39,034 nucleotides of DNA from sequence record ON528715. The stretch is one strand, 5' to 3'. The notes beneath the pieces were generated by a model, which saw only the letters and a list, made by a program, of their open reading frames with translations, searched no databases and was not told the DNA's origin. Numbering within the stretch: the stretch's first letter is position 1; each line of letters opens with the position of its first letter. Both the position numbers and the translations under genes were made by a program. Shown here piece by piece: positions 6,650 to 26,119 of this stretch. Source of the DNA: Shigella phage ESh1.

Positions 6650-6830
6650 CTTCATCCCTATAGAGTCAAGTCCTAAGGTATACCCATAAAGAGCCTCTAA
6701 TGGTCTATCCTAAGGTCTATACCTAAAGATAGGCCATCCTATCAGTGGAACCTAAAGAGGGTCTTAGAGAGGGCCTAAGGAGTTCCTAGAGGGTCCTTTA
6801 AAATATACCATAAAAATCTGAGTGACTATC
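6650..6830 (+). repeat. Right-end short-repeat array (CCTAAAG/CCTAAGG-type motifs) preceding the terminal repeat
   Basis: Repeated motifs tcctaaggtatacc, tcctaaggtctatacc, cctaaagataggcc, cctaaagagggtc, cctaaggagttcc; corresponds to the T7 right-end repeat region. Confidence 0.6.
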
Positions 6831-6990
6831 TCACAGTGTACGGACCTAAAGTTCCCCCCATAGGGGTACCAAAGGCCCAGCCAATCACCTAAAGTCAACC
6901 TTCGGTTGACCTTGAGGGTTCCCTAAGGGTTGGGGTTGGTCCCTTGGGTTTACCTTGAGTGTCTCCTTGTCCCTATCTGTTCAGTCTCCT
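6831..6990 (+). repeat. Direct terminal repeat (single collapsed copy; concatemer junction)
   Basis: Begins TCTCACAGTGTACGGACCTAAAGTTCCCC, the T7 genome-end sequence; length assumed about 160 bp by analogy, the true boundary cannot be set from one copy. Confidence 0.6.
6975..6981 (+). promoter_or_regulatory. Concatemer-junction pause site for phage RNAP (ATCTGTT)
   Basis: Exact ATCTGTT heptamer inside the terminal repeat, as in the T7 class II pause/termination signal. Confidence 0.5.
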
Positions 6991-7145
6991 AAAGTCACCT
7001 CCTAAAGTCACCTCCTAAAGTCACCTCCTAAAGTCATTCCTACCGTCTACAACCTAAAGACTACACTTAAAGACCCATCAAGTCAACGCCTATCTTAAAG
7101 TATCTCCTAAAGACCATCCTAAAGACCATCCTAAAGCCTATCCCA
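6987..7145 (+). repeat. Left-end short-repeat array incl. 13-bp tandem repeat x4 and cctaaagaccat x2
   Basis: 13-bp period tandem repeat (tcctaaagtcacc) at 6987-7038 and further CCTAAAG-containing units to about 7145. Confidence 0.7.
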
Positions 7146-7207
7146 TAGACGCCTTGTTGTTACCTATAAAGAGTTACCTTAATCATAGTCTTTAATCATT
7201 GTCTCTT

Positions 7208-7230
7208 TAATACGACTCACTATAAGGAGA
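7208..7230 (+). promoter_or_regulatory. Phage RNAP promoter phiOL (TAATACGACTCACTATAAGGAGA)
   Basis: Near-consensus 23-mer at the genetic left end. Confidence 0.8.
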
Positions 7231-7281
7231 CTACTTAAAGACCCTTAAAAGAGATTAATTAAAAATTTATCAAAAAGAGTG

Positions 7282-7310
7282 TTGACTTAAAGAGTCCTAG
7301 AGGTTACTAT
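7282..7310 (+). promoter_or_regulatory. Host sigma70 early promoter A1
   Basis: TTGACT - 17 bp - TACTAT, collinear with T7 A1. Confidence 0.75.
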
Positions 7311-7407
7311 TCATCTCGTCAACGGGACAACGGCCTAAAGCCACTCCCTGAGATACCGGGGTCAACCGGATAAGTAGGCAGCCTGTAAGCCATACGAAAA
7401 ACAGGCA

Positions 7408-7437
7408 TTGACAACACGAAGTAACATGCAGTAAGAT
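7408..7437 (+). promoter_or_regulatory. Host sigma70 early promoter A2
   Basis: TTGACA - 18 bp - TAAGAT, near-identical to T7 A2. Confidence 0.8.
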
Positions 7438-7522
7438 ACACAACGTAGCGTCAACCGGACGCACACAAGGTGTCTTCTAGGTGACTTAAGCGCACCACGG
7501 CACATAAGGTGAAACAAAACGG

Positions 7523-7551
7523 TTGACAACACGAAGTAAACACGGTACGAT
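7523..7551 (+). promoter_or_regulatory. Host sigma70 early promoter A3
   Basis: TTGACA - 17 bp - TACGAT, near-identical to T7 A3. Confidence 0.8.
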
Positions 7552-7669
7552 GTACCACATGCAGTAAGGGTGTAGGGATAGGAACCGAGAAACCTGCCCG
7601 TGACCCGCCAAGGATAAGGCACTAGCTATGAGTCGAATTCGGTCACTCATCGCATAAAAGAATAACAGG

Positions 7670-24865: not shown

Positions 24866-25120
24866 ATGTTAACACCTATTCAACAATTACTTAAGAACCC
24901 TAACGATATTCCAGATGTACCTCGTGCAACCGCTGAGTATCTACAGGTTCGATTCAACCACGCGTACCTCGAAGCGTCTGGTCATATAGGATTTATGCGT
25001 GCTAGTGGTTGTAGTGAATCCCACATCTTGGGTTTCATTCAGGGCCTACAGTATGCCTCTAACATCATTGACGAGATTGAGTTACGCAGGGAACAACTAA
25101 GAGATGATGGGGAGGATTAA
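24866..25120 (+). CDS. 6.5: gp6.5
   Basis: 84 aa [40 protein letters not shown].. Confidence 0.85.
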
Positions 25121-25124
25121 CCTT

Positions 25125-25394
25125 ATGTGTTTCTCACCGAAAGTTAAAGTTCCGAAGATGGATACCAATCAGATTCGAGCCGTTGAGCCAGCGCCTCTGA
25201 CCCAAGAAGTGTCAAGCGTGGAGTTCGGCGGTGGGTCTTCTGATGAGACGGATACCGAAGGCACCGAAGTGTCTGGACGCAAAGACCTCAAGGTCGAACG
25301 CGATGATTCCGTAGCGAAGTCTAAAGCCGCTGGTACTGGCTCCGCTCGTATGAAATCTTCAATCCGTAAGTCCGCATTTGGAGGCAAGAAGTAA
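25125..25394 (+). CDS. 6.7: gp6.7 virion/ejected protein
   Basis: MCFSPKVKVPKMDTNQIRAVEPAPLTQEVSSVEFGG.., start chosen by homology with T7 gp6.7. Confidence 0.8.
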   Translation: MCFSPKVKVPKMDTNQIRAVEPAPLTQEVSSVEFGGGSSDETDTEGTEVSGRKDLKVERDDSVAKSKAAGTGSARMKSSIRKSAFGGKK

Positions 25395-25795
25395 TGTCTG
25401 AGTTCACATGTGTGGAAGCTGAGAGTCGCTTCCGTGCAATCCGGTGGACTGTGGAACACCTTGGGTTGCCTAAGGGATTTGAAGGACACTTCATAGGTTA
25501 CAGCCTATACGTTGACGAAGTTATGGACATGTCCGGTTGTCGTGAAGAGTACATTCTGGACTCTACAGGAAAACATGTAGCGTACTTTGCGTGGTGTGTA
25601 AGCTGTGATATTCACCACAAGGGAGACATTCTGGACGTAACGTCAGTTGTCATTAATCCTGAGGCAGACTCTAAAGGCTTGCAGCGATTCCTAGCGAAAC
25701 GCTTTAAGAACCTTGCAGAACTCCACGATTGCAATTGGGTGTCCCGCTGTAAACATGAAGGCGAGACAATGCGTGTATACTTTAAGGAGGTATAA
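25394..25795 (+). CDS. 7: gp7 host-range/virion protein
   Basis: 133 aa MSEFTCVEAESRFRAIRWTVEHLGLPKGFEGHFIGYSLY.. Confidence 0.85.
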   Translation: MSEFTCVEAESRFRAIRWTVEHLGLPKGFEGHFIGYSLYVDEVMDMSGCREEYILDSTGKHVAYFAWCVSCDIHHKGDILDVTSVVINPEADSKGLQRFLAKRFKNLAELHDCNWVSRCKHEGETMRVYFKEV

Positions 25796-25798
25796 GTT

Positions 25799-26119
25799 AT
25801 GGGTAAGAAAATTAAGAAGGCCGTGAAGAAAGTCACCAAGCCAATTACGAAAGCCGTGAAGAAAGTTACCAAGGAAGTGGCTCGTCCTGTTAAACAGGTT
25901 GCTGGTGCGCTGGCAGGTGGTGCTGGTGAAGCACAGGTAGTGGAAGTACCACAACCAACGGCTGCTGCAACTCCTGCTGCACAGATTGTTGACGTACCTG
26001 AGAAAGAGGTTTCCACTGAGGACGAAGCACAGACCGAAAGCGGACGTAAGAAAGCCCGTGCTGGCGGTAAGAAGTCCTTAAGCGTAGCCCGTAGCTCAGG
26101 TGGCGGCATCAACATTTAA
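25799..26119 (+). CDS. 7.3: gp7.3 tail/adsorption-associated protein
   Basis: 106 aa lysine-rich MGKKIKKAVKKVTKPITKAVKKVTKEV.., about 7 aa longer than T7 gp7.3. Confidence 0.85.
   Translation: MGKKIKKAVKKVTKPITKAVKKVTKEVARPVKQVAGALAGGAGEAQVVEVPQPTAAATPAAQIVDVPEKEVSTEDEAQTESGRKKARAGGKKSLSVARSSGGGINI

Follow-up and report, generated by a model that had tools for sequence, protein, structure and literature searches.

In phage T7, six copies of gene product 7.3 (gp7.3) sit at the adaptor/nozzle junction of the tail, where residues 84-98 alone are resolved by cryo-EM (PMC11784390). This C-terminal segment anchors to two nozzle (gp12) subunits, and the DNA end is touched by K84/K85 (PMC11784390). 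Residues 1-83 are unmodelled in the same work, with no helix resolved in the N-terminal part of the protein, and diffuse density round the DNA end is ascribed to the basic N-terminus (PMC11784390). The role proposed for T7 gp7.3 is that of a nozzle-assembly scaffold that is expelled on nozzle opening (PMC11784390). Older work annotated the protein as required for adsorption (PMC11784390; PMC3276506), and adsorption is absent in particles that lack it (cited in PMC11784390).

Here we describe the N-terminal part of gp7.3 in Shigella phage ESh1 (record ON528715), in which a seven-residue peptide, AVKKVTK, is encoded twice. The 39,034-nucleotide stretch of DNA analysed is called the window below, and all positions are counted from its first letter. 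An initial annotation of this DNA had regarded the repeat as a possible adaptive, slippage-mediated expansion in an adsorption-associated protein. Our comparisons with related phages indicate that this is an ordinary feature of a known tail protein, inherited as an allele and not newly expanded by adaptation.

Results

Identity of gene 7.3 and its surroundings

The 106-amino-acid product matches the whole profile of the Pfam family PF11653 (VirionAssem_T7; positions 1-99 of 99) with a score of 155.9 bits (cut-off 25; E 4.3e-46). A HMMER search also matches it to T7 'Protein 7.3' in PDB entry 9jyz (E 5e-39). The genes are arranged in the order of a T7-like late operon, 6.5 (PF10911), 6.7 (PF17570), 7, 7.3 and 8, which agrees with annotated relatives, and the 536-amino-acid open reading frame downstream of gene 7.3 is the portal gene (gene 8). 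The stop codon of gene 7 (TAA) occupies positions 25793-25795. When the two proteins are aligned, residues 91-105 of the window gp7.3 correspond to T7 residues 84-98 with no differences. Judged by these matches, the open reading frame is gp7.3, as the initial annotation had proposed, and both the Pfam and the PDB match bear this assignment out. The features discussed in this study are collected in Table 1.

Table 1. Features of gene 7.3 in the window, followed by the N-terminal length classes of gp7.3
Feature	Position	Strand	Source or remark
Ribosome-binding site of gene 7.3, AAGGAGGT	25784..25791	+	Read directly; overlaps the end of gene 7
Gene 7.3	25799..26119	+	106 aa, starts MGKKIKKAVKKVTKPITKAVKKVTKEVARP; tail-channel/virion assembly protein, ejected at infection (T7 data)
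Three hendecad units	25805..25903	+	Tandem Repeats Finder (period 33), repeat search, translation parsing
Predicted single amphipathic alpha-helix, residues 3-39	25805..25915	+	AlphaFold2
Repeat copy 1, GCCGTGAAGAAAGTCACCAAG	25820..25840	+	Encodes A8-K14 (AVKKVTK); read directly
CCA ATT ACG AAA (PITK)	25838..25849	+	Four codons that the T7-type allele lacks under the most parsimonious alignment
Repeat copy 2, GCCGTGAAGAAAGTTACCAAG	25853..25873	+	Encodes A19-K25 (AVKKVTK); read directly
Second indel hot spot, Gly/Ala tract GALAGGAG	25904..25927	+	Codon alignment
Third indel hot spot, QPTAAATPAAQ	25952..25984	+	Short GCT/GCA/ACT-CCT repeats; codon alignment
C-terminal segment equivalent to T7 gp7.3 residues 84-98	26069..26113	+	HMMER alignment; structure from PMC11784390
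N-terminal length 13			L011; exactly 11 codons fewer than L009
N-terminal length 17			L015
N-terminal length 20			T7 laboratory clone T7_1t3
N-terminal length 21			2 protein clusters
N-terminal length 24			Three architectures, including T7
N-terminal length 28			Window and relatives

Several observations concern the neighbouring reading frames and the assembly as a whole. Gene 7 (25394-25795, 133 amino acids), which is labelled 'host range' in annotated relatives, gave no Pfam family at E <= 0.01. The open reading frame of gp6.7 (25104-25394) encodes 96 amino acids with a Pfam match that begins at residue 8; relatives annotate 88 amino acids, and the true start of gp6.7 is probably an internal ATG near 25125. 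An antisense open reading frame of 167 amino acids (25612-26115) is a mechanical reading frame opposite a well-supported gene, and nothing in the data speaks for it. Nucleotide 1 of T7 aligns to window position 6829 (window 6829-7561; 80% identity over 788 aligned columns), and because this is a single match, the window is a circularly permuted assembly in which the terminal repeat has collapsed. Just inside this point, at about 6975-7030, lies a 13-nucleotide tandem array, TCCTAAAGTCACC, present in 3-4 copies, which we take to resemble the short-repeat arrays beside the T7 terminal repeat.

The in-frame repeat

The two copies of the repeat start 33 nucleotides apart, are both in frame and have a single mismatch (C at 25834, T at 25867). 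Tandem Repeats Finder reports a period of 33 with 1.9 copies and 90% matches over 25810-25873, and a repeat search stretches the pair to 33 nucleotides at 85% identity. The initial annotation had described a 21-nucleotide in-frame repeat with a 33-nucleotide offset and one mismatch, and both direct reading and Tandem Repeats Finder confirm this description. The copies lie head to tail with high DNA identity, as in a slippage-prone tandem repeat, and the longest exact repeat in this segment of the window is 14 nucleotides (GCCGTGAAGAAAGT), again at a spacing of 33.

Direct repeats of 21 nucleotides that carry at most one mismatch and lie 21-100 nucleotides apart are found at two places only in the 39-kb window, and in none of 30 first-order Markov simulations. 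When the N-terminal residues were shuffled, an exact seven-amino-acid repeat appeared 104 times in 200,000. Given the peptide twice and the codon usage of the genome, identity at six or more of the seven codons has a probability of P = 0.017. The repeat is a genuine duplication at the DNA level that exceeds chance.

Three indel hot spots account for the size difference from T7

The initial annotation held that the repeat makes the protein about seven residues longer than T7 gp7.3. The total is correct (106 versus 99 residues), but alignments show that the repeat region supplies only four of the seven. A HMMER alignment with T7 and a 22-gene Teseptimavirus codon alignment divide the difference of +7 among three places: the lysine-rich N-terminus (+4 residues), the Gly/Ala tract (-3) and an Ala/Pro/Thr tract (+6).

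The repeats allow an equivalent placement of the four N-terminal codons, at GCC GTG AAG AAA (AVKK, 25853-25864). Under the most parsimonious codon alignment, the T7 segment TCC GTT AAG AAA GTC GTT AAG GAA pairs with copy 2 of phage 64795_ec1, GCC GTT AAG AAA GTC GTT AAG GAA (23 of 24 nucleotides), and the codons that T7 lacks would be those for PITK. At the Gly/Ala tract it is T7 that has three additional residues (GGLAGLAGG), and the deficit of GLA in the window is due to a 9-nucleotide tandem, GGTCTGGCT, in T7. The third hot spot adds six residues (PTAAAT) to the window protein relative to T7, and relatives vary there by 1, 2, 3, 5 and 6 codons. In T7 evolution experiments, in-frame deletions of gp7.3 fall in the same region as this Ala/Pro/Thr hot spot (PMC12798971). 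One relative (P0039) carries a tandem AATP-AATP in the low-complexity hot-spot region of its gp7.3.

A predicted amphipathic helix with an 11-codon period

Translation of the repeat region can be parsed into three units of 11 residues: KKIKKAVKKVT (25805-25837), KPITKAVKKVT (25838-25870) and KEVARPVKQVA (25871-25903). Units 1 and 2 share 85% DNA identity, unit 3 is degenerate, and the T7 counterpart of the three units consists of 11 + 7 + 11 residues. AlphaFold2, supplied with a 49-sequence alignment, predicts a helix over residues 3-39 (mean pLDDT of 85, 84 and 70 in the first three 10-residue blocks) and disorder in the rest of the protein. Between residues 5 and 38, hydrophobic residues keep an unbroken 3-4 spacing. 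The segment has a hydrophobic moment of 0.68, which peaks at exactly 100 degrees, and the observed maximum was reached in none of 20,000 shuffles. For a solved structure of the repeat region, the PDB offers only T7 gp7.3 (9jyz, with residues 84-98 modelled), plus a non-significant hit to 9gf4 (E = 0.4). The periodicity and the prediction indicate that a 33-nucleotide period encodes a predicted lysine-rich amphipathic N-terminal helix, and that the repeat forms the core in which this period is best preserved.

In phage SYGE1 (L051), codons 12 and 23 of gp7.3 carry valine-to-alanine changes in both copies of the repeat (GTC to GCC and GTT to GCT, respectively), and the third positions still differ. 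The parallel changes are 11 residues apart on the same predicted helix face, a lone example that could be coincidental. A T7 clone, T7_80L (MZ375247), carries T13P and R25S in the same gp7.3 helix.

The 28-residue allele is inherited

The window genome is T7-like (Teseptimavirus), and among deposited genomes that of Shigella phage ESh3 is the closest, with 96% identity over 25 kb. The gp7.3 of ESh3 differs from that of the window in one residue (K83R) and carries the same repeat, which is likewise present, in proteins with a few substitutions, in Escherichia phages Bas104, JeanTinguely and AV103 and in Cedecea phage Yanou. In all five phages the protein has 106 amino acids and a 28-residue N-terminus; SYGE1 has the same N-terminus in a protein of 105 amino acids. 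A 111-nucleotide query over the segment retrieved about 32 deposited records at 90% identity or above, and all of those listed span the 111 nucleotides with no indel, whereas T7-type records cover 99 nucleotides of the same query. The relatives that we retrieved at about 90-95% DNA identity here share the 28-residue segment with the window, and it is present in 14 of 22 Teseptimavirus genes, the window and ESh3 included.

The mismatch between the copies is also shared. ESh3, Bas104 and JeanTinguely have the same GTC/GTT difference as the window, and GTC in copy 1 with GTT in copy 2 is kept in L001, L002, L003, L005, L007, L013, L048, L049 and L050. A difference common to orthologues indicates that the two copies were already distinct before these phages diverged. 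On this comparison of sequences, the 28-residue allele is inherited and not private to ESh1, and the repeat is ancestral within its lineage. The initial annotation had raised the possibility of an adaptive expansion, and had named an identical repeat in close relatives as the sign of an ancestral one; the relatives carry the same repeat, the same length and the conserved mismatch, and by that reasoning the expansion is not recent.

We grouped gp7.3 proteins into 120 clusters at 90% identity and took the N-terminal length as the number of residues before the RPV motif. This length is 24 in 94 clusters, 28 in 22 and 21 in 2. The comparison of gp7.3 lengths across phages that had been proposed at the outset thus reveals a polymorphism throughout the genus (13-28 residues), but the length is a constant 28 in the closest relatives, among which copy number does not change; differences appear at the genus level only (13, 17, 21, 24 and 28). 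The exact window gp7.3 is absent from a collection of 15 billion proteins. Two records have unexpected host names: Staphylococcus hyicus is given as the source of a deposited T7-type gp7.3 (P0035), and MT350293.1, 'Enterococcus phage EFA-2', is named as an Enterococcus faecalis phage and has 89% identity to the window in this region. Both are probably cases of contamination or host misattribution.

Polarity of the 28- and 24-residue forms

Yersinia phage AP10 (L018), which is not a Teseptimavirus, aligns to the window gp7.3 over residues 1-25 with no gap. AP10 and AV103 have the same KPVEKAVK, for which the AP10 DNA reads ACT AAA CCT GTG GAG AAA GCC GTT AAG. Two more gp7.3 types outside the T7-like group, KKVTKPIEKVVKE and KQVSKPVEKVVKG, have a KP-x-x-K-A/V-V-K unit in the same register, the genus of the second non-Teseptimavirus type being assigned by sequence type only. 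Because this unit is common to three non-T7 lineages, the short form of T7 was probably derived by loss. The long, 28-residue register is thus probably ancestral and the 24-residue form of T7 a loss of four codons, a call that is moderately secure since alignments of periodic units allow more than one register, as in outgroup type L021, whose RP motif matches the KP motif of AP10.

The corresponding seven-codon segments of AP10 (VIRKVTK and AVKSVGK) are alike at only 8 of 21 nucleotides, compared with 19-20 of 21 for the copies in Teseptimavirus alleles of the 28-residue class. For this reason an additional old event is needed in the Teseptimavirus stem, which would be either an intragenic conversion or a duplication combined with a loss. 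Copy 1 (KKAVKKVTK) occurs widely across the family, whereas copy 2 is specific to Teseptimavirus.

Both the AP10 comparison and this distribution would fit concerted evolution of the two copies, by repeated intragenic gene conversion or by one such event that made the second AVKKVTK in the Teseptimavirus ancestor. We regard this account as unlikely. Its ongoing form conflicts with the GTC/GTT difference, which is stable across orthologues, and with the valine-to-alanine changes of SYGE1, which keep different third positions and so must be two separate mutations with no copied tract. These two observations make ongoing gene conversion between the copies unlikely, and we reject it. A single ancient conversion event may have occurred and would be compatible with the explanation that we prefer, namely an inherited allele of a periodic helix.

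Length changes in the helix segment

The events inferred for the helix segment involve 4, 4, 4, 7, 7, 7 and 11 codons, and never 1, 2, 5 or 6. In phage 13a, for example, the helix is seven residues shorter, at its end. By contrast, indels of 1, 2, 3, 5 and 6 codons occur in the codon alignment at the two hot spots of gene 7.3 that encode disordered sequence. Simulated deletions of 4, 7, 8 or 11 residues leave the hydrophobic moment at 0.61-0.74; it falls to 0.09-0.35 when 2, 6, 9 or 10 residues are removed.

Exact direct repeats of at least 5 nucleotides occur in the segment at spacings of 9, 12, 21, 33 and 45 nucleotides only (in T7 also 42), and the natural indels of 4, 7 and 11 codons coincide with spacings that bear such repeats. 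Since direct repeats are present only at phase-preserving spacings, mutation bias and selection are inseparable here. A laboratory clone of T7 carries an example of such a change. The gp7.3 of T7_1t3 (OL964750.1, L054 locus 610-897) has 95 amino acids owing to a 12-nucleotide in-frame deletion that removes KKVV. The deletion, TCC GTT AAG [AAA GTC GTT AAG] GAA, lies between two copies of the 7-nucleotide sequence CGTTAAG, and to judge from this junction it is a signature of slippage or short-homology recombination. A literature search found no source paper for the T7 mutant records OL964750 and MZ375247, and a search on direct-repeat deletions in T7 found nothing directly relevant.

These data are consistent with a simple mechanism. 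A periodic protein sequence requires periodic DNA (GTN AAG AAA GTN), which places short direct repeats 12, 21 and 33 nucleotides apart. Slippage or short-homology recombination at these repeats would add or remove 4, 7 or 11 codons, and changes of these sizes would keep the hydrophobic stripe in phase and hence be tolerated. The natural length classes of 13, 17, 21, 24 and 28 residues (and the laboratory class of 20) would then have been mixed among lineages by recurrent events, recombination, or both. Because the longest exact repeat has a spacing of 33 nucleotides, the likeliest spontaneous event in the window would be the loss of one hendecad (33 nucleotides), giving MGKKIKKAVKKVTKEVARP.

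We consider it likely that the window carries an inherited, phase-keeping allele of the helix, that slippage or short-homology recombination varies its length, that the T7 form arose by loss and that the variation is near-neutral. The slippage-mediated length polymorphism proposed in the initial annotation is retained in part: the segment is polymorphic in length with indels at short direct repeats, but no change in copy number is seen among the closest relatives.

Host association of the length classes

Both major length classes have been isolated on E. coli K-12, as JeanTinguely (28 residues; Basel sewage) and JacobBurckhardt (24 residues) illustrate, and no association between host and length class was seen in the records at hand, which are a small sample. 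Neighbour-joining trees of the flanking sequences (gene 7 and the 5' part of gene 8) have the 24- and 28-residue classes interleaved; these trees are shallow and affected by mosaicism, and they show interleaving but cannot count events. Interleaving of this kind is expected from recurrent indels, from mosaic recombination, or from both. Each length step corresponds to about one to three helix turns and about one or two lysines per chain, and in net charge the window segment differs from its T7 counterpart by +1 per chain. The length variation is probably close to neutral, as inferred from the lack of a host partition in this small sample. The suggestion that the repeat is adaptive finds no support here, given that K-12 hosts both classes, the flank trees interleave and no host partition is seen.

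Among Teseptimaviruses that are close in other respects, the first 900 nucleotides of gene 8 (from about 26134) exist as two groups of alleles separated by deep divergence, with L006, L009, L011, L012 and L016 in one group and the remainder in the other. T7 groups with L011, and the window groups with ESh3. This pattern suggests mosaic recombination right beside gene 7.3.

Discussion

If the variation were not near-neutral, helix length might instead be a functional tuning knob, with different lengths selected on different hosts or envelopes. For example, the cationic helix might interact with LPS or the outer membrane once it has been ejected, or its length might set the amount of contact with the DNA end in the channel. 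Natural lengths of 13 to 28 residues within one genus and the failure of particles without gp7.3 to adsorb (cited in PMC11784390) would be in keeping with such a role, as would the substitutions and in-frame deletions that gp7.3 gains in T7 evolution experiments (PMC12798971). However, the experimental deletions described in the text of that study fall in the disordered G39-Q55 part of gp7.3 and not in the helix (PMC12798971). The shared K-12 host, the interleaving of alleles on the flank trees and the small difference in net charge between the window and T7 also count against selection for particular lengths, and we judge this explanation to be distinctly unlikely.

Even less probable, in our assessment, is that gp7.3 of this phage was lengthened when slippage recently duplicated AVKKVTK, and that the change was adaptive for adsorption. 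The copies do agree at 20 of 21 nucleotides, which is more than the peptide requires, and they have rare codons in common (GCC, 16%; GTG, 22%); the annotation of gp7.3 as required for adsorption in older work (PMC11784390; PMC3276506) also fits this reading. However, the 28-residue segment is present in relatives with its mismatch conserved across orthologues, the difference from T7 is four codons and not seven, outgroups have the longer register, and hosts do not partition by length. Least probable of all is a role at the nucleic-acid level, as mRNA structure or as an A-rich enhancer of translation initiation: the repeat is A-rich and lies 21-75 nucleotides downstream of the ATG, but the fold of 25770-25900 is no stabler than shuffled sequences (z = -0.59; 49 of 200 at least as stable), orthologues differ freely at synonymous sites of the segment but retain the amino-acid periodicity, and an Rfam search of the whole window gave no family at threshold, so that the unremarkable fold and the Rfam result together make an RNA-level role unlikely.

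With the inherited, phase-keeping allele as the preferred reading, the practical consequence is small, in that a likely misreading of the repeat as a new adaptive expansion is corrected. Use of the T7 reference alone as the comparison leads to the wrong indel size and probably also to the wrong polarity. A broader proposal, which we offer tentatively and hold to be possible but doubtful, is that the gp7.3 N-terminus folds as an amphipathic helix and that selection on its phase restricts length changes to whole-turn steps (4, 7 or 11 residues). If this were true, the N-terminus would not be merely a floppy polycation, and the part of the protein unseen by cryo-EM would have a defined structural role. 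Candidate roles would be a six-helix lining or plug round the DNA end in the channel, or a cationic helix that is active on membranes or LPS after ejection. Periodic coding DNA would also steer slippage into tolerated variants, and thus act as a built-in 'accordion'. The comparison of in-phase with out-of-phase indels offers a cheap handle on the structurally unexplained N-terminal third of an essential protein.

Comparison with known systems

The window gp7.3 and T7 gp7.3 are products of the same gene, located between gene 7 and the portal gene, and their C-terminal halves are identical, including the nozzle-anchoring residues. Both proteins are laid out in the same way, with basic termini that enclose a low-complexity A/P/Q centre followed by an acidic stretch, and they differ in length (99 amino acids in T7, 106 in the window). 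A more distant parallel, likened by description, is gp34 of Ar-KM, a phiKMV-like 'wedge' protein that has been proposed as a functional orthologue of gp7.3 (bioRxiv 10.64898/2026.05.18.726046). It too is encoded by a small open reading frame upstream of the portal gene and has basic termini and a low-complexity A/Q/P centre. Unlike gp7.3, it is present in 8 copies at another location, and a hendecad repeat is absent from its description.

With respect to the helix itself, 11-residue (hendecad) amphipathic repeats form the helices of apolipoproteins and alpha-synuclein. The window segment resembles such helices in its period of 11, its 3-4-4 hydrophobic spacing and its strong helical hydrophobic moment, but it has only 2-3 units and no sequence homology to them, so the likeness is one of periodicity alone. 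Similarly, the match of the window to a designed hendecad coiled coil (9gf4) is the weak, non-significant one reported above.

Deletion between short direct repeats in T7 is reportedly well documented from the work of Studier and of Masker and colleagues. The gp7.3 indels resemble these classical deletions in that they occur at short direct repeats, here 12, 21 and 33 nucleotides apart. They differ in that the gp7.3 repeats lie inside an essential coding region, where only in-frame changes that keep the phase of the predicted helix are seen.
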